Shown one piece after another: positions 3,213-16,197 of a DNA stretch of 64,000 nt. Where the stretch lies: NCBI GenBank assembly GCA_965263395.1, contig OZ253670.1, forward strand, positions 1,387,958-1,451,957, written 5' to 3'. Source of the stretch: Dehalococcoidia bacterium. Its GTDB lineage: Bacteria > Chloroflexota > Dehalococcoidia > Lucifugimonadales > UBA3495. Position numbers and translations under genes: made by a program. The notes below the pieces were generated by a model. That model was not told the DNA's origin and did not search any database. It saw only the letters and a program-made list of their open reading frames with translations. The first letter of the stretch is position 1. Each line of letters starts with the position of its first letter.

Positions 3213-4546
3213 CTGACAGGGGTATGTATAGGGTTTCATGTAGGGGCATGGCGGGTGACCTCCAGGTTGGGCTTGGGTTCCGGCCAGGGTTCGGGCAGCA
3301 GCCATACCCGGCGCCATAACCGGCCCCGGTGCAGCAAGCGTCTCAGCCAGTCGATGCCGTGCCGGATTACGCTGACGGTCCGTCCCGGCTTCTCCCTGCC
3401 GCTGCGGTGCGTGGGCGCCAGCGCCCGGGGCGGCGCTCGCAAGCTGCCGGGGGGCATCTTCCGGTCATAGGCGTCTTCCACCCTGGTCCCATAGGCCAGG
3501 GTCAGGAGCGTCGCCACCGGCAACACGAACCAATGGCGCGAAATCCGCGCCGGGTCAGTCCTGCGGGTCTTGTGCCATTGCCAACCCAGGCTCTTGACCG
3601 CCTTGAACCCCAACTCGATCCAGAAGCGGAGGGCGTACCAACTCACCCCAACTTGGTCCGGCGGAAGGTCGGTCAGGATGATCCACGGCTCCTCCTGTTC
3701 AACGTACCAGACCGCCAGCAGGGTGCAACGGCGTTTTGCGGCGGCTCCGCCGAAGGCGGTCCCGCTGCCGGTCCAGGCGGTATCCGGACTGGAAACGAAG
3801 GCGCGCGCGGGCAGCCGCCGTCCGCCATCGGCGCAGAAAGTGACGTTTCTCGGATACCTCATGTAGGGATGCCAGCCCTGAGCGAGTATCTGTTTCCACA
3901 ATTTCGGACTGGCCAGGCCCCGGTCGCACATCACAATCACGGTCATTTCCCTGGGGACCGCCGGGGCCAGGGCCTGCAGCAGTTCCACTATTGGGTCCAT
4001 CCAGGCCCCGCGCTGGTTGGCCCGCAGGATTCGCCAGGCCACGGGAATCGCGCAACCCCGGTAGACCACGCTGATGACGATGGCGGTGGTGTCGTCCCCT
4101 TTCAACGTGGGGTCAACCGCCAGCGCCAGCCTATCGGAACGCCACCACGCCAGGACCCACCGGAGCAGCGGCGCGAAGCAGAGACTTACGTCCAGTTCGG
4201 TCTTGCAGGGGCAGGGACGGGCCCGGTCGCCGCCGTCGTACAACCACTCTCTGAGATACTGCCGCAGGTTGTTCCAGTTGCCCCGGGTGGAGAGGGCGGA
4301 CGCGACGGTATTCTGGCAGGCGCTCCCAGCCAGAATGGTCCCGCACCCCCACCAGGCCAGGCCGGTCAACTGTGGCTGAGTGAGGTGCGGTAAATGCGTT
4401 TCAATGACCTGCTGCATCTGGCAGCATTCCCTTGGAAGGCGCATGGGATACCTCCGGCATCCGGTTTCGTCATTACAACCAAGATGACGGATTCCTGTGC
4501 GCTTTCCAAGCTCTCAGACCAATTTCAGTATACATACCCCTGTCAG
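3213..4546 (-). mobile_element. IS4-family insertion sequence, copy 1 (1334 bp)
   Basis: Perfect 18-bp terminal inverted repeats CTGACAGGGGTATGTATA (3213-3230, reverse complement at 4529-4546). 11-bp direct target duplication CCTGGGAGAGG (3202-3212 and 4547-4557). Confidence 0.9.
3236..4444 (-). CDS. IS4-family DDE transposase
   Basis: 402 aa. Candidate DDE residues lie in LALAVDPTL and VMCDRGL, and YALRFWIELGFKAVK gives the Y-x2-R-x3-E-x6-K signature of IS4-type transposases. About 90% identical at protein level to ORF 14972-16174. Confidence 0.9.
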   Translation of the reverse strand: MRLPRECCQMQQVIETHLPHLTQPQLTGLAWWGCGTILAGSACQNTVASALSTRGNWNNLRQYLREWLYDGGDRARPCPCKTELDVSLCFAPLLRWVLAWWRSDRLALAVDPTLKGDDTTAIVISVVYRGCAIPVAWRILRANQRGAWMDPIVELLQALAPAVPREMTVIVMCDRGLASPKLWKQILAQGWHPYMRYPRNVTFCADGGRRLPARAFVSSPDTAWTGSGTAFGGAAAKRRCTLLAVWYVEQEEPWIILTDLPPDQVGVSWYALRFWIELGFKAVKSLGWQWHKTRRTDPARISRHWFVLPVATLLTLAYGTRVEDAYDRKMPPGSLRAPPRALAPTHRSGREKPGRTVSVIRHGIDWLRRLLHRGRLWRRVWLLPEPWPEPKPNLEVTRHAPT

Positions 4547-4654
4547 CCTGGGAGAGGGGAGAATGAAAAGGCCTTGGCGCTGGGCTCGGGAGTGTTGACA
4601 AATTGGGCATACTGTAGTTAGATAATAGCAATGGATAGCGGATTTCCGTTATCG

Positions 4655-4686
4655 GCGCTTACCCTCCTTGAGGGTGAGCGCTTTTT
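4655..4686 (+). terminator. intrinsic terminator-like hairpin plus T-run
   Basis: GCGCTTACCCT (4655-4665) pairs with AGGGTGAGCGC (4671-4681): 11 bp with one G-U pair and a 5-nt loop. TTTTT follows at 4682-4686, and this T-run overlaps the stop codon of the convergent minus-strand gene. Confidence 0.55.
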
Positions 4687-5848
4687 AATTATCTGCTCCC
4701 ATGGATTGATCGCGATGGAGGTCTATCGTTTCCTTGATGTCGGCGTCAGGAAACACTTTTACACCGAATTTCCCCATTCTTCCGTCCCCTCGCCAGTATA
4801 TCTTGCGACTAAACAAATCCCATCTGCCTGGATACTGCTTACAATCCTCTCGGACCCATTCATAGATGTCCCTGGAAATCATGTCAGCTAACTCACAAGG
4901 GTTAGAAGCTGATTTTGGGATAAACCGAAGACCGGTTTCTAACCAGTTGCGAAAAGCTGTGTCTGGAACCCATTGTGTTCCTTCGACCAGAATTCTAGCG
5001 TATTCCAACTGATGTAGGGCATCTTCCTTAGGTCCTTGACTTTCAAAAGTGATTCGTCCCATACGCTTTACACCATCGTTGGCGAGGAAATCAACATATC
5101 GTTCTAAGAGCATCAATATAGCTACCGAGTAAACATCTGTGGGTAAATATGGGTCACCCTCTGCTTCTACGAATTCTTTTTGGAAGGCGGTTTTTCTAAT
5201 CCCTGCACCGAACGCTTTGCAGTCACTCGTGATCACCAATTGTCGTATTGCATCGTCAAACGCCGATTGTTTTCCTTCGTCATTCTCGAAGTAATAGACT
5301 CCCTTCTTCTGTCGCATTTCAGGTTCATGGAAAGTGATTTCGGTGGTTCCAAAAAAATCCCTTTTGATTCTGTCAGCTTCCCTGATGTATGCCTCCTCCG
5401 CTTCTACGGACATAGCGATTCCGCCCAAGGAGAAAAACTGTGGCGAATCCAAATGGGGCTCAGGATTTGACTTGCCATTTTCATCCAGATAAAGGCCGCC
5501 GGTTGGCCGTCGCTCCAACAACGGTTGACTGGCATTACGCTTGAATCGTTTACGGGGTTCAACGTATCCGTAGGACCGTTGAAGTTCAGCTTGTTCGCGG
5601 TTGACGATAAGGTCACCAAGTTCTTTGCACAAGGCTGGATCTACTCCGGCCCTAAGCAATAGCACTTCGAGAGAACGAACAACCCTCGATGCTTCTGCGA
5701 GCAAGAGCGCATTGTTCCTAGCGAGTCTGCGTCCATGAGGGTCCCCGCGTTCTGGTCGGCTGCGTTGATTTTCCATGTCGGCAGTATAACATTTGAGCCT
5801 TTCAAGACCGCGAACGGCGAGGCGTCCTATTTCAAATAGTGCCCCCAA
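4685..5848 (-). CDS. DUF3800 domain-containing protein with N-terminal extension
   Basis: LYLDENGKS (DUF3800 N-terminal DExG-type motif), ITFHEPEM, and near the C-terminus NPCELADMISRDIY (the LQxAD-type motif). Visibly AT-richer than neighbours. Alternative start at ATG 5776. Confidence 0.6.
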   Translation of the reverse strand: MGALFEIGRLAVRGLERLKCYTADMENQRSRPERGDPHGRRLARNNALLLAEASRVVRSLEVLLLRAGVDPALCKELGDLIVNREQAELQRSYGYVEPRKRFKRNASQPLLERRPTGGLYLDENGKSNPEPHLDSPQFFSLGGIAMSVEAEEAYIREADRIKRDFFGTTEITFHEPEMRQKKGVYYFENDEGKQSAFDDAIRQLVITSDCKAFGAGIRKTAFQKEFVEAEGDPYLPTDVYSVAILMLLERYVDFLANDGVKRMGRITFESQGPKEDALHQLEYARILVEGTQWVPDTAFRNWLETGLRFIPKSASNPCELADMISRDIYEWVREDCKQYPGRWDLFSRKIYWRGDGRMGKFGVKVFPDADIKETIDLHRDQSMGADN

Positions 5849-5942: not shown

Positions 5943-7442
5943 TTGCCCGACAAAGTTTACGACGTAGTGGTGGTGGGCGCCGGCAACGCCGCCCTCAGCG
6001 CGGCCATCGCCGCCAGGGAAAACTGCGAAGATGTGCTGGTGGTGGAGAAAGCCCCCGAATACTTCCGCGGCGGCAATACCTACTTCACCGGCGGCATCAT
6101 CCGCTTCGCCTTCAACGGCATCGACGACATCAAGGCCGTCATCCCCGATATGTCCGAGGCCGAGGAAAACTCCATTGAGGTGGGCAGCTACACCGAGGAC
6201 GATTACTACGACGACATGATGCGGGTCACCCACGGCCTGACCGACCCGGAGCTGGCCCAAATTCTGGTAAGCCAGTCCCACCCCACCATGAAGTGGCTCC
6301 AAGAAAACGGCGTCCGCTTCCTGCTGTCCTTCGGGCGGCAAGCCTTCAAGGACGGCGACAAGTTCCGCTTCTGGGGCGGCTTGGTGGTGGAGGCCGTGGG
6401 CGCGGGCAAGGGACTGTCGGACCAGCAATTCGAGGTCTGCCAGCGCCAGGGCGTCGAAGTGCGCTACGCCACCCAGGGCGTCAACCTGATCCAGGACCAG
6501 AAGGGCCGGGTCAGCGGCCTGCGGGTGCTGGGACCCGAGGGGTTCGAGGACATTCACGGCCGCTCCGTGGTGCTGGCCGCCGGCGGCTTCGAGGCTAACG
6601 CAGAGATGCGCTGCCGCTACTTGGGACCGGGCTGGGAGATGGTGAAGGTTCGGGGCATTCCCTACAACACCGGTGACGGCATCCGCATGGCGCTGGACGT
6701 GGGCGCGCAGTCCCACGGCCACTGGAGCAGTTGCCACGCCGTCGCCTGGGACATGAACGCCCCCGCCTTCGGCGACCGGGTCATCACCGAGCTGTTCCAG
6801 AAGCATTCCTATCCCTTTGGCCTGATTGTCAACCTCAACGGCGAGCGGTTCCTGGACGAGGGGTTGGACTTCCGAAACTACACCTACGTCACCTACGGGC
6901 GGGCGCTGTTGACCCAACCCCAGGGACTGGCCTTCCAGGTCTTCGACGAGAAGGTCAAGCATCTGCTGCGGGACGAATACTGGATTTCCCAGGCCACCAT
7001 GGCGCAGGCCGACAGTCTGGAAGAACTGGCCGCACGGCTGGACATCGACCCCGAGGGCCTGGTCAACACGGTCAACGAGTACAACGCCGCCGTCCGCACC
7101 GACATTCCCTACAATCCCACGGTCAAGGACGGGCGCCGCACCGAGGGCCTGGCGGTGGACAAGACCAACTGGGCCGAGACCATCGACACGCCGCCCTACT
7201 ACGGCTGGGCGGTGACCACCGGCATTTCCTTCACCTTCGGCGGGGTCAAGATTAACAACCGGGGCCAGGTGGTGACCAACGCGCAGGAACCCATACCCGG
7301 CCTGTACGCCGCCGGCGAAATGGTGGGCGGGCTATTCTACTACAACTACCCCGGCGGCTCCGGCCTGTCGGCAGGCATGGTCTTCGGGCGTCTCTCCGGC
7401 AACAACGCCGCCGAAGACGCGAATCTGCTGAAGGATATTTAG
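5943..7442 (+). CDS. FAD-dependent oxidoreductase, tricarballylate dehydrogenase (TcuA)/fumarate-reductase flavoprotein-like
   Basis: Dinucleotide-binding motif YDVVVVGAGNAALSAAIAARE. Also VVLAAGGFEAN and the C-terminal LYAAGEMVGGLFYYNYPGGSGLSAGMVFGR. Start placed at TTG 5943, 7 nt after GGGGAGG; the track start at 5793 overlaps the upstream gene. Confidence 0.75.
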   Translation: MPDKVYDVVVVGAGNAALSAAIAARENCEDVLVVEKAPEYFRGGNTYFTGGIIRFAFNGIDDIKAVIPDMSEAEENSIEVGSYTEDDYYDDMMRVTHGLTDPELAQILVSQSHPTMKWLQENGVRFLLSFGRQAFKDGDKFRFWGGLVVEAVGAGKGLSDQQFEVCQRQGVEVRYATQGVNLIQDQKGRVSGLRVLGPEGFEDIHGRSVVLAAGGFEANAEMRCRYLGPGWEMVKVRGIPYNTGDGIRMALDVGAQSHGHWSSCHAVAWDMNAPAFGDRVITELFQKHSYPFGLIVNLNGERFLDEGLDFRNYTYVTYGRALLTQPQGLAFQVFDEKVKHLLRDEYWISQATMAQADSLEELAARLDIDPEGLVNTVNEYNAAVRTDIPYNPTVKDGRRTEGLAVDKTNWAETIDTPPYYGWAVTTGISFTFGGVKINNRGQVVTNAQEPIPGLYAAGEMVGGLFYYNYPGGSGLSAGMVFGRLSGNNAAEDANLLKDI

Positions 7443-7683
7443 AGAGAGCCATTTAGGAGAAGACCCGGTACGCCTTGAGCGAATTTGCCCGCGCCGGGAC
7501 GCAAGTATGCGCTCCGGCGCACTGCACTGGCGCGGAGCTTTGGTTCACCGCCGGAGAATTCGTCCGAATCATATCGTTGAAGCGTGCGCTAAACAGGGGG
7601 AGTTTCAGGGGCCAATAGTGAATCACTGCCCCAGAGGACTATTGCCCCTCGGAAATTTGCAGCCCCCACTCCAGGAGCATCCC

Positions 7684-8538
7684 ATGACCACCCCCACCGA
7701 CCGCATCGCCCTCTTGGAACGTGAAGCGCGCGAGTTACTCGCCTTTCTGCGGGAGTTAAGCCCTGCGGACTGGCAGACGCCCAGCGCCTGCGCCGGCTGG
7801 ACGGTGGCCGATGTGGTGGGCCACCTCACCAGCGTCGACTTCGCGAACCGTATGGTGCGCGGACTGGACGGCGATTACTCTCCGCCCGAGGGTTCGCCCG
7901 CGCCGGAGCAGCACGACGAGGACGTTTTTGCCCAGAGCATTTATCAGCGGGCCATCACCACCAAGGAGCGGCTGGGTGAGGGCCTCCTCGACAACTTCAC
8001 CCAACGCATCGATGAGGCCGTGGCACTCTTCCGGCGGGTGCAGCCGGACCAGTGGGACAACCTGGTCTACTGGCCGCCGGGACCCCTCTCCATCCGCACC
8101 CTGCTGACCCAGCGCATCTCCGAGCTGACCATGCACGGCTGGGACATCCGCTCCCGGTTGGAAGGCGATTACCACCTTTCCGACGGAAGCATCGCCGCTC
8201 TGCTGGACACCGTGGACCGGGCGGCCCGCCGCGCCTTCCGCCCCGACGCTGCTCTGAGCACTCCGTTGCGCTACCGTTTCGACATCGCCCCGCCGGTTTC
8301 GGCCCTGATTGACGTCGTGCTCAGCAGCGATGTCGCCCGGGTGGAGCCGGCCCCTGCTGCTGCCGCCGGGAATGACTCACTCCCGTCAGCTACCTTTAAC
8401 TGCGACGGCGAGACCTGCGTCCTCGTCATGTACGGCCGCCTCAACCCCGAAGACGCCGTCGCAGCCGGACGCCTGACCGTGGTTGAGGGCGATGAAGGGA
8501 TGGCCGCCGAATTTGGCCGCCGGTTCGTGGGCGGGTGA
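7684..8538 (+). CDS. DinB/maleylpyruvate-isomerase-family (mycothiol-dependent-like, TIGR03083-type) protein
   Basis: Begins MTTPTDRIALLEREARELLAFLRELSPADWQTPSACAGWTVADVVGHLT, which fits the MDMPI_N/DinB pattern. Start taken at ATG 7684. Confidence 0.65.
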   Translation: MTTPTDRIALLEREARELLAFLRELSPADWQTPSACAGWTVADVVGHLTSVDFANRMVRGLDGDYSPPEGSPAPEQHDEDVFAQSIYQRAITTKERLGEGLLDNFTQRIDEAVALFRRVQPDQWDNLVYWPPGPLSIRTLLTQRISELTMHGWDIRSRLEGDYHLSDGSIAALLDTVDRAARRAFRPDAALSTPLRYRFDIAPPVSALIDVVLSSDVARVEPAPAAAAGNDSLPSATFNCDGETCVLVMYGRLNPEDAVAAGRLTVVEGDEGMAAEFGRRFVGG

Positions 8539-8648
8539 TTCTTGGCGTCGCTGGCTTCAACCGCTTGAGCGTTACTGACAGATGAGGGTTTCGCCTTGGC
8601 TTGGTTTAGGGTATTCTTTGCCGCAATAGATTACCCTGTGGGCGATTG

Positions 8649-9944
8649 ATGACCACTAAAGTATTCCACGAAATCCGCGACCCAGTCCATGTTTTCATTA
8701 CGCTTGATTCCGATGAGAGGGACGTGGTTGATTCCCTTCCGGTTCAGCGGTTGAGACACATTCATCAATTGGCGATGGAGTACCTGGTCTATCCGGGCGC
8801 CACCCACAAACGATTCGAACACGCTCTCAGGGTAATGGAACTTGCGGGCAGGGTATATGACGTAATAACCCGAACCGACCTGGTCACTGACGAGGTTAGA
8901 AATCTGGTCCCTGACATTGCGAACGACGACCATAGGAGATACTGGCGGAGAGTGCTGAGAATGGCTGCCTTGTGTCACGATATAGGGCATCTCCCATTCT
9001 CGCACGCGGCCGAGCACGAGTTGCTTCCTGATGGGTGGACTCATGAAACAATTACCGCAGAGCTAATCCGAAGCGACGAAATGCAGCAGATTTGGCAATC
9101 TGTGACTCCGCCTCTGCGAGTCGACGACATTGTGAAGCTGTCGGTTGGGCCGGCCAAATCACCGGAGTTGGTCTTTTCAAATTGGGAAGCCGTGCTGTCT
9201 GAGATTGTTGTAGGGGACGCCTTTGGCGTGGACCGCATGGATTATCTACTTCGGGATTCTCTCCACGTTGGGGTACAGTACGGCAGGTTCGACCATTACC
9301 GCTTGATCGATACTCTCAGAATACTACCTGAGACCGACAATTCCGATCGACCAACACTTGGATTGGAGGGAGGTGGAATCCAGTCGGCAGAAGCCTTGCT
9401 GTTGGCCCGATACTCCATGTTCTCACAAGTGTATTTTCATCCGGTTAGGCGGGCCTACGACTTGCATCTCAAGGACTTCTTGCGGGAATGGCTTCCTGGA
9501 GGTGTATTCCAGACCACTACCCAGGAGTTCTTGGAACTGTCTGATGTTGAAGTGTTAGCCGCGATCCGGCAAGAGGCGCAGAAAGGGTCAGATCCGGCAA
9601 TGAGAATAGCCCACAGGCAGCACTTCAAGGTAGCCTACTCACGGAATCCTGATGACCTCAGGTTAAATCAGGGGGCAGGCGAGGCTGTGTGGCAGGCATT
9701 AGTCCAAAGGTACGGTGAGGAAAACGTGAAGCTCGACAATTACGTGCCATCGGGAAGTGTGGTTGATTTCCCAGTGTTGCAACCCGACGGCCGCATCATG
9801 GCTTCTCTAACCGCATCAGACCTGCTGCGTCAAATACCCCCTGCGGCCGTGGACTTCGTTTTCGTAGAACCTTCGATTCGGGACGAAGCGCGGAGGTTCG
9901 TAGTTGCTAATCGCCAGAACATTTTGTCCGGAAAAGGTGAGTAG
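8649..9944 (+). CDS. SAMHD1/EF1143-like HD-domain phosphohydrolase (putative dNTP triphosphohydrolase, COG1078)
   Basis: Motifs FHEIRDPVHVFI, HKRFEHALRVMELA, AALCHDIGHLPFSHAAEH and FGVDRMDYLLRDSLHVGVQYGRFD supply the H...HD...D metal-site pattern of the family. About 431 aa, the typical family length. Confidence 0.8.
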   Translation: MTTKVFHEIRDPVHVFITLDSDERDVVDSLPVQRLRHIHQLAMEYLVYPGATHKRFEHALRVMELAGRVYDVITRTDLVTDEVRNLVPDIANDDHRRYWRRVLRMAALCHDIGHLPFSHAAEHELLPDGWTHETITAELIRSDEMQQIWQSVTPPLRVDDIVKLSVGPAKSPELVFSNWEAVLSEIVVGDAFGVDRMDYLLRDSLHVGVQYGRFDHYRLIDTLRILPETDNSDRPTLGLEGGGIQSAEALLLARYSMFSQVYFHPVRRAYDLHLKDFLREWLPGGVFQTTTQEFLELSDVEVLAAIRQEAQKGSDPAMRIAHRQHFKVAYSRNPDDLRLNQGAGEAVWQALVQRYGEENVKLDNYVPSGSVVDFPVLQPDGRIMASLTASDLLRQIPPAAVDFVFVEPSIRDEARRFVVANRQNILSGKGE

Positions 9945-9959
9945 AAAGGGGGTGTGTCA

Positions 9960-10523
9960 ATGCTGGAGAACGTAGAACGATGGGCGGTTGTTGCCCAGCT
10001 TATCAAGAATATGCGTGCCGAAGGCGGATGGGCAGGCGAGACTCATATCCAAAAAGCCCTGTTCTTCCTGCAAGAACTGCTGAAAGTCCCCAGTGATTAC
10101 AACTTCATGCTGTACAAGCATGGGCCGTATTCCTTCGACCTCCACGACGATTTGGGGAAAATGCGGGCATACTTGGTCCTGGATATTCAACTTCAGCGTC
10201 CTTACGGCGCTTCATTTGGGCTAGGGGACACGGGAGGCAATGTAATCCAGAGGGGTAAAGCGGCCGTTGAGCGGTACGAAGGCCAACTGGAGTTTGTTGT
10301 TGGCGCCTTGGGTACAAAAGACGTAAGAACGCTGGAAAGGTATGGCACCGCTTTATTCGTAAAAGGCCGTCAACCGGAGTTCGATGATGTCGCTATGGCG
10401 AACAAAATTATTGAACTCAAGCCGCACGTTACGGGGGATCTGGCCCTTGAGGCAGTTCGGGAGGTCGCCAAGATTGAAAGTGATGCTAGAGCCAAGGGGC
10501 TAATTGTTCAGCAACCGACATGA
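9960..10523 (+). CDS. hypothetical protein, Panacea(DUF4065)/YwgA-like (tentative)
   Basis: Starts 15 nt after the HD gene stop, preceded by AAAGGGGG. THIQKALFFLQELL...YKHGPYSFDLHDDL follows the KLQKLLYF...W.HGPV...LY pattern of DUF4065. No catalytic motif recognised. Confidence 0.6.
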   Translation: MLENVERWAVVAQLIKNMRAEGGWAGETHIQKALFFLQELLKVPSDYNFMLYKHGPYSFDLHDDLGKMRAYLVLDIQLQRPYGASFGLGDTGGNVIQRGKAAVERYEGQLEFVVGALGTKDVRTLERYGTALFVKGRQPEFDDVAMANKIIELKPHVTGDLALEAVREVAKIESDARAKGLIVQQPT

Positions 10524-10581
10524 GCGGGATGCCGTGGATGATCGGCCCCCGGGTTCCAATCGTAACCAGAACCGTTTGCCG

Positions 10582-10899
10582 CTAATGCCAAAAGCCCTCC
10601 CGCCGGCGGTTGTTGGCCCGCAAGGAACTGAAGACCGGCATGGGGTTCACCGTCACTTCCTTCGCCATGCTTCGGGTGACTTCAACCAGCCTCGAATCGG
10701 GTGACGATGCGCCCCTTCCCATAGCTGCTTCAATCCATCGGAAGGCTGCCATTCTTTGCCAACCCGGCAGGCTGCTTTTCCCGTCTGCTTCCAGGCACAC
10801 CCACCCGTCGGGGTCGGAATTGACCAAAACGCCGGTTTGGGGAGTATAATCCAACCAACGGCCGATGATGGCCGGGGAGTATCCAACCAACCCCATCAA
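10582..10899 (-). CDS. hypothetical protein (weak call)
   Basis: 105-aa ORF in an otherwise unassigned gap, with protein-like composition (GWVCLEADGKSSLPGWQRMAAFRWIEAAMGRG). No recognisable family and no clear RBS. Confidence 0.25.
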   Translation of the reverse strand: MMGLVGYSPAIIGRWLDYTPQTGVLVNSDPDGWVCLEADGKSSLPGWQRMAAFRWIEAAMGRGASSPDSRLVEVTRSMAKEVTVNPMPVFSSLRANNRRREGFWH

Positions 10900-10926
10900 C
10901 GATTCTACCTAAGGAGGTACGGAGCT

Positions 10927-11373
10927 ATGACTCAGGAGGCAATGCACACCCGCATGGGCGGAGATGTGGCCGGCTCGGAAGAGCTGATCCCCGCGGGAGC
11001 CGTAACCTTCGGCTTGATGTACCGCACCGGCGTGGGTGAGAAGAACGACGAAGGCATCTGCATCCACGTCTACGGCAACGACATCCCCGGTGACGACAAG
11101 GAGCTGCTCCGCCTGGACTGCTTCAAGTACGACCCCCACTACCACTACCGCAACGCCACCGTCAAGCAGAACGAGCGCCTGATGCTCGACTACACCGCCG
11201 AGGGCGGCTCGGTGGAGTGGGCGCTGGACAAAATCCAGAACCGTCTGCCCGCCATGCTCCTGCGGTGCCAGGCCGGCTCGACCGCCCGCGGCCTGGACCA
11301 GCGGGATGTTGACGCGGCCCTGCCCAAGATTGCCGCGTGGGCCGAGAGCAAGACCCGGGAGAGCTACGGCTAA
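10927..11373 (+). CDS. hypothetical protein
   Basis: ATG 10927 is preceded by AAGGAGG. 148 aa, GC and codon style like the backbone. No family recognised. Confidence 0.55.
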   Translation: MTQEAMHTRMGGDVAGSEELIPAGAVTFGLMYRTGVGEKNDEGICIHVYGNDIPGDDKELLRLDCFKYDPHYHYRNATVKQNERLMLDYTAEGGSVEWALDKIQNRLPAMLLRCQAGSTARGLDQRDVDAALPKIAAWAESKTRESYG

Positions 11374-12304: not shown

Positions 12305-13512
12305 GTACTACTTCCAGATAGATTTACAAGAATATGAGAAGGCAGCCATACTTGGGTATGATCTTTCTGTGGGGGAGTATCCAGACATGGCTGCCATCAA
12401 GTATAAAGTCAAGCTGGCTGAATCCGAACGAGCCCGTCTCAATGAGGTTTCCCACCGGGGCAAGCTGTCAGTCCGCACCGTCAAGCGGGCGCTGGCGCTG
12501 CTCAAAGCAGATGAAGGACTACGGGACGGTGAGATAGCCGGTGTGCTTTTGATCAACGCGGCCACCGTTGCCAGAGTGCGGAAGCGGTTCGTCGAGGAAG
12601 GACTTGAGGCCGCCATCAATGACAAGCCACGGCCGGGCCGGGAGCGCAAGTTGGACGGCAAGCAGGAAGCGCACCTGGTTGCCATCGCGTGCAGCAGTCC
12701 ACCCGAAGGACATGTAAACTGGACGCTCCATCTGCTGGCGGACAAGGTGGTGGAGATGGAGTTTGCCGGGAGCATTTCCCTGGAGACGGTGCGCCAGATA
12801 CTCAAAAAAACGAACTCAAGCCGTGGCGGAAAAAGGAATGGTGCATCCCCAAGCTGAGCGGGGAGTTCGTCGCCCGGATGGAGGAAGCGCTGGACCTTTA
12901 TCACGAAGAGTACGACCTGGAGCGTCCGGTGGTGTGTTTTGACGAGTCCTCCAAGCAGTTGCTCGGGGATGTGCGGCCTCCCATTGAGGCCGCTCCTGGA
13001 CGGGTGGAGCGCTATGACACCGAGTACCAGCGGAACGGGACCCGGAATCTGTTCATGTTCTGTGAACCGAAGGGTGGGTGGAGGCACGTCGAGGTGACTG
13101 GGCGCCGGACTGCTGTGGACTTCGCTCAACAGATGAAGTGGCTGGTGGACGAGGCATATCCTGACGCCACAGAGATCCGGCTGGTGCTGGACAATCTCAA
13201 CACCCACAAGCTCGGCTCGCTCTACGAAGCGTTTGCACCGTCCGAGGCGCGCCGCATCGCCAAACGCCTGGAGCTTCACCACACACCCAATCACGGAAGC
13301 TGGCTGAACATGGCTGAAATCGAGTTCAGCGTCTTCAGCAGACAGTGTCTGAACCGCCGGGTCGGCGATGAAGCGTTGCTGAGACGGGAGGTCGCGGCGC
13401 TCGAACGCGAACGCAACGAGGCCGCCGCCATCATAGACTGGCGGTTCTCCACCCAGGACGCTCGCAGTAAGCTCAAACATATCTATCCAATAGATTTAAA
13501 TTGAAACGGTAC
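12305..13512 (+). mobile_element. IS630-family insertion sequence (boundaries +/-10 bp)
   Basis: About 1.2 kb, with GTAC at both termini and flanking TA dinucleotides (12303-12304 and 13513-13514), as expected for TA-targeting IS630/Tc1-mariner elements. The terminal inverted repeats are only imperfect. Confidence 0.65.
12387..13504 (+). CDS. IS630-family transposase, two frames joined by a -1 shift in an A7 run
   Basis: The HTH part (12387-12857 frame) reads ...VRQILKK. The DDE part (12689-13504 frame) continues NELKPWRKKEWCIP...VVCFDESS...VLDNLNTH...HHTPNHGSWLNMAEIEF. The frames meet at CTCAAAAAAAC (A7 at 12804-12810). Confidence 0.8.
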
Positions 13513-14867: not shown

Positions 14868-16197
14868 CTGACAGGGGTATGTATGGACTGAAATTGGTCT
14901 GAGGGCTTGGAAAGCGCACGGGAATCCGGCATCTTGGTTGCAATGACGAAACCGGATGCCGGAGGTTTCCCATGCGCCTTCCCAAGGAATGCTGCCAGAT
15001 GCAGCAGGTCATTGAAACGCATTTGCCTCACCTCAGCCGGTCACAATTGGCCGGGCTGGTCTTGTGGGTGTGCGGGACTATCCTGGCCGGGAGCGCCTGC
15101 CAGAATGCCGTCGCCGCCGCTCTCTCCACCAAGGGAAACTGGGACAATCTGCGGCAGCGCCTTCGGGAATGGCTCTACGACGGCGGCGACCGGGCGCGTC
15201 CCTGCCAGACCGAACTGGATGTGAGTCTCTGCTTCGCGCCGTTGCTCAGGTGGGTCCTTGCGTGGTGGTGTTCTGACCGGCTGGCCTTGGCGGTTGACCC
15301 GACGTTGAAAGGGGACGACACCACCGCCATCGTCATCAGCGTGGTCTACCGGGGTTGCGCGATTCCCGTGGCCTGGCGCATCCTGCACGCCAACAAACCT
15401 GGGGCCTGGATGGACCCGATAGTGGAACTGTTGCAGGCGCTGGCCCCGGCGGTCCCAGAAGACATGACCGTGATTGTGCTGTGCGACCGGGGCCTGGCCA
15501 GTCCGAAATTGTGGAAACAGATACTCGCTCAGGGCTGGCATCCCTACATGAGGTATCCGAAAAACGTCACTTTCTGCGCTGAGGGCGGTCGGCGGCTGCC
15601 CGCGCGCGCCTTCGTTCCCCGTCCGGATACCGCGTGGATCGGGAGCGGGACGGCGTTCAGCAAGGCAACAGTAAAACGCCGTTGCACCCTGCTGGCGGTC
15701 TGGTACGTTGAACAGGAGGAGCCGTGGATCATCCTGACCGACCTTCCGCCGGACGAAGTTGGGGTGAGTTGGTACGCGCTCCGCTTCTGGATCGAGTTGG
15801 GGTTTAAGGCGGTCAAGAGCTTGGGTTGGCAATGGCAAAAGACCCGCAGGACTGACCCGGCGCGGATTTCGCGGCATTGGTTCGTGTTGTCGGTGGCGAC
15901 GCTGCTGACCCTGGCCTACGGGACCAGGGTGGAAGACGCCTATGACCGGAGGCTGGCCCCCGGCAGCTTGCGAGCGCCGCCCAGGGCGCTGGCGCCCACT
16001 CACCGCAGTAGCCGGGAGAAGCCGGGACGGACCGTCAGCGTAATCCGTTACGGCATTGCCTGGCTGAGGTGGTTGCTGCACCGGGGCCGGTTCTGGAGCC
16101 GGGTATGGCTGCTGCCCGAACCCTGGCCTGAACCCAAGTCCGACCTGGAGGTCACCCGCCATGCCCCTACATGAAACCCTATACATACCCCTGTCAG
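14868..16197 (+). mobile_element. IS4-family insertion sequence, copy 2 (1330 bp)
   Basis: Terminal repeats CTGACAGGGGTATGTAT (14868-14884, reverse complement at 16181-16197). 11-bp direct target duplication CCGTCTCCACG (14857-14867 and 16198-16208). Confidence 0.9.
14972..16174 (+). CDS. IS4-family DDE transposase
   Basis: 400 aa and collinear with ORF 3236-4444, carrying the same LAVDPT, LCDRGL and YALRFWIELGFKAVK motifs. Scattered substitutions and a 2-aa indel (ARPCQTELD versus ARPCPCKTELD). Confidence 0.9.
   Translation: MRLPKECCQMQQVIETHLPHLSRSQLAGLVLWVCGTILAGSACQNAVAAALSTKGNWDNLRQRLREWLYDGGDRARPCQTELDVSLCFAPLLRWVLAWWCSDRLALAVDPTLKGDDTTAIVISVVYRGCAIPVAWRILHANKPGAWMDPIVELLQALAPAVPEDMTVIVLCDRGLASPKLWKQILAQGWHPYMRYPKNVTFCAEGGRRLPARAFVPRPDTAWIGSGTAFSKATVKRRCTLLAVWYVEQEEPWIILTDLPPDEVGVSWYALRFWIELGFKAVKSLGWQWQKTRRTDPARISRHWFVLSVATLLTLAYGTRVEDAYDRRLAPGSLRAPPRALAPTHRSSREKPGRTVSVIRYGIAWLRWLLHRGRFWSRVWLLPEPWPEPKSDLEVTRHAPT

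Follow-up and report, generated by a model that had tools for sequence, protein, structure and literature searches.

Why is an HD-domain protein that resembles SAMHD1 encoded directly beside a small protein of quite another family, and could the two act together against viruses? The question is raised by a 64,000-nucleotide (nt) stretch of a Dehalococcoidia bacterium genome (contig OZ253670.1, positions 1,387,958 to 1,451,957; below, the window), in which a gene for an HD protein of 431 amino acids (aa) is followed by one for a 187-aa protein that we call the partner. Depletion of nucleotides is an antiviral strategy common to animals, where SAMHD1 is the antiviral enzyme that depletes deoxynucleoside triphosphates (dNTPs), and to bacteria, where dGTPase, dCTP deaminase and Clover employ it. 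An earlier note on this DNA, written from its letters alone, had seen a candidate nucleotide-depletion module here. We find that the two genes are a nearly inseparable unit that pairs a predicted dNTP hydrolase with a relative of an antitoxin domain, and we regard the chances as evenly balanced that this unit would be a restrained, toxin-antitoxin (TA)-like nucleotide-depletion module against viruses.

The pairing of the HD gene with the partner is close to obligate. A scan anchored on the partner, covering one genome per GTDB species (185,579 species genomes), returned 439 loci (loci are cited by L numbers below); among the best 80, which were analysed, about 74 have an HD gene immediately before the partner gene in the same orientation, mostly with gaps of at most 60 nt and in several cases with 4-nt overlaps. 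Anchoring instead on the HD protein in metagenomes gave 80 loci at 34–68% HD identity, and all 69 with enough downstream DNA carry a partner homologue immediately downstream; even distant HD members, at 34–38% identity, are still followed by a YwgA-like gene. The adjacency that had been noticed in this one genome is thus close to obligate in others too. It extends through Dehalococcoidia, Desulfobacterota, Bacillota, Planctomycetota, Acidobacteriota, Verrucomicrobiota, Methanosarcinales and Methanomicrobiales in the partner-anchored loci, the nearest relatives of the window's pair being Dehalococcoidia metagenome-assembled genomes (MAGs). Pairwise distances among the HD proteins correlate with those among the partners (Mantel r 0.69, p 0.001), and no third gene is conserved with the pair in the partner-anchored loci, where the next commonest neighbour family occurs in 6. 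The partner family is sizeable, with 2,238 representatives at E ≤ 1e-3 (E, expectation value) among 1.84 billion cluster representatives (50% identity clustering). The 150 best of them all stand alone, at about 180 aa, with no fusion to an HD protein; an apparent fusion in L020 is really an internally deleted HD remnant. A Halanaerobiales MAG (L035, 1971–6549) has an intact pair and, 2.2 kb downstream, an orphan second partner in a locally duplicated block.

By its sequence, the first gene encodes an HD enzyme of the SAMHD1/EF1143/YwfO type (COG1078-like). Pfam finds HD (E 1.5e-7) and, as the C-terminal region, HD_assoc_2 (E 1.9e-15), both above cut-off. In the PDB, a sequence search finds an Aquifex protein (2hek, 2.9e-48), EF1143 (2o6i/3irh/4lrl, 1.5e-31) and SAMHD1 (about 7e-21); 2hek, the closest solved structure, is annotated merely as 'hypothetical protein'. 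Aligned to SAMHD1 and EF1143, the protein has the metal-binding H...HD...D signature together with the catalytic H-E dyad, and it keeps equivalents of SAMHD1 R164, H167, H206, D207, H210, H215, H233-E234 and D311, as well as Y315, D319, R366 and Y374. The signature read earlier from the letters is therefore part of a full catalytic set. Because these catalytic residues are conserved, the enzyme is most likely a (d)NTP triphosphohydrolase, predicted to convert dNTPs, and possibly NTPs, to nucleoside and triphosphate. In the SAMHD1 alignment the equivalents of allosteric-site-1 residues D137, Q142 and R145 are conserved, while allosteric site 2 is kept in part (N119 replaced by R, Q375 by F and K377 by P, with H376 retained). 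The protein is no Dgt-type housekeeping dGTPase, since its TIGR01353 score is 26.9 bits where the cut-off is 152, and with the anti-phage dGTPase profile NF041026 it reaches 12.1 of the 400 bits required; the PADLOC dGTPase profile matches (E 8.9e-6) at residues 53–126 alone, around the HD motif.

The partner has no Pfam match at E ≤ 1, and none appears for 41 family members at E ≤ 10. It matches the NCBIfam DarG profile (E 3.4e-5; 23 bits, against an equivalog cut-off of 250) at DarG positions 169–234 of 338, where the DarG C-terminal domain begins, and in PADLOC it matches DarG (3.5e-5) and PDC-M19A (4.3e-7). Neither the partner sequence nor its profile found anything useful among PDB sequences. 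Its AlphaFold2 model, built on an alignment of 41 sequences, has a predicted local distance difference test score (pLDDT) of 95.6 and a predicted template modelling score (pTM) of 0.91, and consists of a winged-helix-like N-terminal half and a helical C-terminal half. Foldseek aligns this model significantly with just two PDB chains, 7yk3_B (E 3.8e-5) and 7yk3_D (E 6.5e-5), at probability 1.0 and template modelling (TM) scores of 0.66–0.68 over 189–191 columns, that is, over the whole protein. These chains are the C-terminal domain of Mycobacterium tuberculosis DarG in complex with DarT. As Deep et al. 2023 are summarised in PMC13621843, this domain binds and inhibits the toxin DarT. The Joint Genome Institute (JGI) calls the homologues P0005, P0105 and P0111 'uncharacterized protein YwgA', which bears out the YwgA-like identity suspected in the earlier note. 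Judged from its modelled fold, the partner is a member of the YwgA/DarG-C-terminal family, homologous to the DarT-binding domain of DarG, and we predict that it acts on the HD enzyme as an inhibitory or regulatory protein.

Two other identities for the partner were tried and set aside. The PADLOC candidate PDC-M19 fits poorly: only the first 60 partner residues match the 294-position PDC-M19A profile, the HD protein matches no PDC-M19 component, and the supplements of Payne et al. hold no annotation for it. A Clover-like nucleotidyltransferase (NTase) finds no signal in Pfam, NCBIfam or PADLOC.

Assignment of the partner to Panacea (DUF4065), proposed from the pattern of its N-terminal half, gives way to the better match with the DarG C-terminal domain: PF13274 is unmatched by the 41 family members even at E ≤ 10. 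For comparison we collected the validated PanA of Burkholderia phage phi52237 (L082) and 47 PF13274 relatives. Profile alignment by hhalign of the partner family with 30 true Panacea proteins is weak (E 0.0018, probability 14.7%, 64 columns), with xQKxxaF and G-P-[VY] motifs in register between the two; G-P-V is the Panacea signature critical for neutralisation (PMC8832971). A fold search of BFVD with the partner model returned no Panacea-named match in its top 50, and an AlphaFold model of Panacea (pLDDT 95.5) has 7yk3_B as its top PDB match, weakly (E 0.22, TM 0.40). Homology between DUF4065 proteins and the C-terminal domain of DarG is asserted in a paper of 2026 (PMC13621843). We see in Panacea no more than a remote relative of the partner, on a distant branch of the same superfamily.

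How might such a pair work? The partner would bind the HD enzyme and hold it off, as the DarG C-terminal domain does with DarT. A virus would perturb the partner, through its loss, its titration or direct sensing, and so relieve the block; the freed enzyme would then collapse the dNTP pool, and viral DNA replication would stall. Within this scheme we infer the dNTP substrate, the binding and inhibition of the enzyme by its partner, the trigger and the antiviral effect alike. More tentatively, and with the doubt outweighing the confidence, we suggest that HD plus YwgA-like pairs could be a widespread, unnamed antiviral system of bacteria and archaea, in which a protein of the DarG-C-terminal/Panacea superfamily would inhibit a SAMHD1-like dNTPase stoichiometrically and also sense infection; it might act by occupying the nucleic-acid or allosteric interface that SAMHD1-type enzymes need for assembly. 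No model in PADLOC-DB v2 covers the pair, and we found no paper on ywfO or ywgA function or on an HD enzyme with a DarG-like or Panacea-like protein, in keeping with the earlier view that such a coupling is undescribed as a system.

Decay of the pair is one-sided, which is the expectation if the HD protein is harmful without its partner. Of 76 informative partner-anchored loci, 11 keep an intact partner while their HD gene is missing (L055, L059, L065 and L075), reduced to a remnant (L020, L048, L073 and L081) or interrupted by over 1 kb of inserted DNA (L018, L023 and L028; the insert ORFs, or open reading frames, of L018 look IS630-like by eye). The reverse, a missing or broken partner beside an intact HD gene, occurs in 0 of 69 HD-anchored loci. 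For these gross lesions the asymmetry is significant (Fisher's exact p = 7e-4), with the qualification that its two sides are drawn from different databases. The case is tempered further by 11 more HD genes that are split by a frameshift or stop, some of which may be assembly errors.

One-sided decay is also what a selfish addiction pair would show, one with no antiviral function that persists because loss of the partner kills the cell. The homology of the partner to an antitoxin domain and the toxin-then-antitoxin order, as in darT-darG, suit this explanation, as do orphan partners that sit amid TA and mobile elements (L055, and L073 near ORFs that look HicA-like and RelE-like by eye). Addiction modules thrive on plasmids and phages, where the partner is nearly absent (one distant match in 72,556 plasmids and none in 50,697 sequenced phages), which makes the pair unlike classic addiction modules and counts against an antiviral module too. 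Proteins of 431 and 187 aa are, moreover, large for a classic type II pair, and the embedding among Hma genes described below points specifically to defence. We consider pure addiction quite improbable, and since many TA systems prove to be defence systems, it overlaps with the restrained antiviral module that we favour.

The neighbourhood gives pointers to conflict. In L040 (Methanosarcinales), L076 (a deltaproteobacterium) and L080 (Methanolinea) the pair stands inside a run of genes, HmaA-HD-partner-HmaB, whose successive members overlap by 4 nt; the same order is found in L054 (Desulfobulbus alkaliphilus DSM 24258), and L037 has the HmaA side alone. At least four archaeal and bacterial loci place the pair in translational coupling with HmaA on one side and HmaB on the other. 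The Hma genes beside the pair score strongly (HmaA E 4.5e-191, HmaB E 1.7e-126). HD copies in these loci are merely 50–66% identical, about the family average, which indicates that the embedding is old or has happened repeatedly. Position inside Hma is a 'guilt-by-embedding' criterion that has led to seven validated systems (Payne et al., bioRxiv 10.1101/2024.01.29.577857). The pair stands beside type I restriction-modification (RM) genes in L015, L046, L053 and L074 and beside an ApaLI RM system in L089, and the 149 nearest neighbours include 8 AAA_21/AAA_15 ATPases, 4 DNA methylases and a BsoBI endonuclease. The defence setting suggested by the earlier note thus holds for these loci elsewhere and fails in the window itself, where none of the 9 neighbours of the pair matches PADLOC.

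The pair also behaves as a travelling unit. It is more AT-rich than its flanks in 66 of 69 loci, by 8.3 GC points on average and by up to 21, which makes the low GC content a property of the module and not of the window's genome. Archaeal HD copies (Methanosarcinales, Methanoperedens) are 66–70% identical to deltaproteobacterial ones, more than some deltaproteobacterial copies are to one another. One MAG has two copies of the pair (L004, L007), and the distribution is patchy, the 439 matches being scattered over many phyla and two domains. These observations are best explained if the two genes form a self-contained operon that has spread horizontally through bacteria and archaea.

Several findings nonetheless weigh against an antiviral module, along with the unmatched neighbours in the window, the near-absence from plasmids and phages, and the two reservations on decay. 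The order FAD (flavin adenine dinucleotide) oxidoreductase - DinB - HD - partner is kept in relatives, with proteins about 65–78% identical, so the pair is long resident and the rapid turnover typical of defence genes is not obvious; the AT-rich islet is accordingly not a recent insertion at this site. HD proteins are 51–81% identical across phyla, unusually conserved for a defence gene. Many loci are metabolic, with glycosyl hydrolases and luciferase-like oxidoreductases among the neighbours, and in a Dehalococcoidia-type genome (L091, 7122–13245) the pair lies between purF and purM-purH, which may be a chance insertion or a link to nucleotide metabolism. Finally, the partner family has invariant motifs (GETHIQK, YKHGPYSFDL, PYGPSF, LER..TA and KPH) and invariant polar residues (E27, T28, H29, K32, K53, H54, D60, E126, K154 and H156) that could serve ligand binding or catalysis, not simple plugging.

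These findings give body to a housekeeping explanation, in which the enzyme would trim or sanitise the (d)NTP pool or remove 5'-triphosphates, with the YwgA-like partner as its allosteric regulator or specificity subunit and no role in conflict. Local synteny, strong HD conservation, the purine-biosynthesis locus, absence from plasmids and phages, and partner residues that resemble a ligand site all agree with it. So does the ywfO-ywgA pair of B. subtilis, which we take to lie in the core chromosome. A YwfO-like HD gene is also retained in the minimal cell JCVI-syn3.0, with speculation that it serves a sanitising or an RNA 5'-end function (PMC4993169). Set against this are the patchy distribution, the GC content below that of the host flanks in all but three of the 69 loci, transfer of copies between archaea and bacteria, embedding between HmaA and HmaB and adjacency to RM systems, repeated loss or insertion sequence (IS) disruption of the HD gene, and the want of any conserved metabolic neighbour. 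We judge a purely housekeeping role unlikely, though it is the rival we take most seriously.

In two relatives (L083, 6180–7690; L084, 6178–7688) an AAA_15/AAA_21 ATPase and a 155-aa gene stand between the FAD oxidoreductase and DinB. PADLOC finds the ATPase AriA/GajA/AbiLi-like, and the insert is missing from the window at about 7442–7680. A small hotspot for genes of a defence-like kind may lie immediately before the pair.

Viral and plasmid contigs add further arrangements. IMG/VR holds 8 related loci, with the pair in L092 and L094 and an orphan partner in L093 and L095. In L096 (5980–7983; IMGVR_UViG_3300045988_155446, a 46-kb viral contig) a 159-aa partner-like gene precedes a 503-aa HD gene in a reversed, divergent pair directly upstream of an SPP1-type portal gene. 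HD gene and partner thus stay together even when their order is reversed, which speaks for a functional tie rather than simple linkage. The orphan partners (L093, 4425–5006; L095, 6001–6558) have no HD gene nearby on their putative viral contigs. Phage-borne orphan DarG-like antitoxins are known (PMC11825919), and as pure speculation the viral orphans might be anti-defence decoys. On the Methanomethylovorans hollandica plasmid pMETHO01 (L088, 3126–11282) a distant partner (28% identity) lies directly downstream of a 'DNA polymerase elongation subunit', with an ATP-dependent DNA helicase three small genes further, which hints at a link of YwgA-like proteins to archaeal DNA replication genes. 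In Ca. Magnetocorallium paracelense (L055, 4876–7940) an orphan partner sits between a helix-turn-helix (HTH) ORF, XRE-like by eye from its translation, with an ImmA/IrrE peptidase (M78), and a Fic/DOC protein; this Fic neighbour is a rare exception to the pairing with HD.

Clover is among the closest described systems. It consists of the dGTPase CloA and the nucleotidyltransferase CloB (Yamaguchi et al. 2025, PMC12265719), and it shows a defence dNTPase to be toxic when nothing restrains it, so that a dedicated partner is needed. The pair shares with it the two-gene operon, an HD-family dNTP triphosphohydrolase as effector with the HD motif and H-E dyad, and a second gene that would restrain an otherwise toxic enzyme. 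It differs in that CloB is a Pol-beta-type nucleotidyltransferase, marked by a [D/E]h[D/E] motif, whose product p3diT is the inhibitory nucleotide, while the partner has no NTase motif; the HD protein differs too, having the HD_assoc_2 C-terminal region and being closest to Aquifex 2hek and EF1143. Since the partner is DarG-C-terminal-like and not an NTase, restraint would be by a protein instead of a small molecule. With DarTG the pair has in common the DarG C-terminal fold (PDB 7yk3) and the effector-first, binder-second order; it lacks the macrodomain (ADP-ribosyl glycohydrolase), for which Pfam finds no match in the partner, and the upstream gene encodes an HD hydrolase in place of the ADP-ribosyltransferase DarT.

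PanAT systems, built on Panacea/DUF4065 antitoxins that are 'hyperpromiscuous' in their partners (Kurata et al. 2022, PMC8832971), resemble the pair in setting a small stand-alone protein with QK and GP motifs in register beside an effector. The partner family, in contrast to hyperpromiscuous Panacea, is almost monogamous with one HD subfamily. The anti-phage dGTPase of Tal et al. 2022, reportedly Dgt-type, and E. coli Dgt are likewise HD-superfamily dNTP triphosphohydrolases for nucleotide depletion, but the anti-phage dGTPase is of another HD clade and is a single-gene system without a partner. SAMHD1 and EF1143 share the catalytic core and the allosteric-site-1 residues; the HD protein has no SAM domain, a different C-terminal half (HD_assoc_2) and a dedicated protein partner. 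The same apparent architecture recurs in B. subtilis ywfO-ywgA, a link that we draw from the JGI naming.

In the window the two genes share one reading frame and are most likely co-transcribed (Table 1); the layout described in the earlier note, two co-directional ORFs 15 nt apart, holds up in reading frames, stops and starts. Its motifs are all present (HKRFEHALRVM, LCHDIGHLPFSH and FGVDRMDYLLRDS in the HD protein; THIQKALFFLQ...YKHGPYSFDLHDDL in the partner), while the start that it gave to the module, at 8560, falls in the 5' non-coding leader, outside the HD gene. The AT-richness that it pointed out is borne out by windowed GC (0.52–0.54 over 8501–10500 against 0.60–0.68 on either side; 0.527 for the pair against 0.599 in the 4-kb flanks on each side), as are the IS-rich surroundings.

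Table 1. Features of the HD-partner locus and its surroundings, in window positions.
Feature	Position	Strand	Remarks
Non-coding leader of the HD-partner module	8539–8648	+	Two short boxes and an imperfect inverted repeat
Leader boxes	ACTGACAG 8574–8581; GGTATTCT 8610–8617	+	Position kept in Dehalococcoidia relatives
Imperfect inverted repeat	8608–8617 / 8628–8637		10 nt, 90% complementary; overlaps box GGTATTCT
HD gene	ATG 8649 (alternative TTG 8646) to TAG 9942–9944	+	431 aa; gene call of an identical public ENA contig starts at ATG 8649
Intergenic spacer AAAGGGGGTGTGTCA	9945–9959	+	15 nt, between TAG of the HD gene and ATG of the partner
Ribosome-binding site AAAGGGGG	9945–9952	+	Inside the HD-partner spacer
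Partner gene	ATG 9960 to TGA 10521–10523	+	187 aa
AT-richer stretch	8540–10560		GC about 0.53; coincides with both genes and the leader
DDE_Tnp_1 transposase	about 3236–4444	-	
IS630-type transposase, HTH_32 and DDE_3	12369–13504	+	Two overlapping ORFs
DDE_Tnp_1 transposase, second	14972–16174		

The leader was compared among L002, L005, L007, L010, L011 and L083, whose upstream genes differ. The boxes recur there as xxTGACAx, 69 to 74 nt before the start codon, and GGTATxxT, 34 to 37 nt before it, and since they hold this distance despite the different upstream genes, the module seems to carry its own leader. Together with the inverted repeat they are a candidate promoter/operator. Their 32-nt spacing exceeds that of a standard -35/-10 pair, and a sigma-70 consensus scan of 8300–11000 found no promoter-like site, with terminator-like sites only at chance level.

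An operator here would suit a partner that acts as the winged-helix transcription factor of its own operon, the HD enzyme being regulated at the level of expression alone. The partner's N-terminal half does resemble the winged-helix proteins MarR, PadR and F93, and the small inverted repeat overlaps the conserved -10-like box upstream of the HD gene. Those matches are partial and weak (E 0.01–1, TM 0.2–0.36), whereas the DarG C-terminal domain matches at full length, and the sequence of the inverted repeat is not conserved among relatives. The partner is near neutral (isoelectric point, pI, 6.1; family median 6.7), not basic; as a means of telling DNA binding from DNA mimicry, its charge is uninformative. 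Pairing down to 34% identity and the reversed order in L096 better fit a protein-protein partnership, and we think a role confined to transcription very improbable.

Beyond the pair, a 105-aa ORF (10582–10899, minus strand), called as a gene in the public record, is convergent with the partner gene and has no Pfam or PADLOC match; relatives lack it beside the pair, and a major facilitator superfamily (MFS) transporter comes next there. The IS630-type transposase comprises an HTH_32/HTH_29 ORF (12369–12857) and a DDE_3 ORF (12689–13504), an arrangement that fits a programmed or fixed frameshift, and the 390-aa ORF antisense to it (12308–13480) is probably spurious. On the other side, next to the DDE_Tnp_1 gene on the minus strand, lies a DUF3800 gene (387 aa, about 4685–5848, minus strand) that matches no PADLOC model. 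It lies in the stretch that is most AT-rich within the first 22 kb (GC 0.45–0.50 over 4501–5750), and looks like a second foreign islet, apart from the HD pair.

Restraint of nucleotide-depleting enzymes until infection is, to our knowledge, known for one bacterial system only. If the restrained antiviral module is real, the pair would be a second, protein-based way to restrain such an enzyme. It would connect SAMHD1-type enzymes with the DarG/Panacea antitoxin superfamily, since the domain is the one that neutralises the DNA ADP-ribosyltransferase DarT; on the more tentative view of a widespread system, it would also give prokaryotes a protein-gated equivalent of SAMHD1 restriction. The module is frequent enough for study, being found in bacteria and archaea and in at least one cultured strain, Desulfobulbus alkaliphilus DSM 24258. 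Were the housekeeping explanation true instead, the two genes would still be a strictly coupled enzyme-regulator pair in dNTP homeostasis; as an antiviral module, they would give the ywfO-ywgA pair of B. subtilis, long unexplained, a function.

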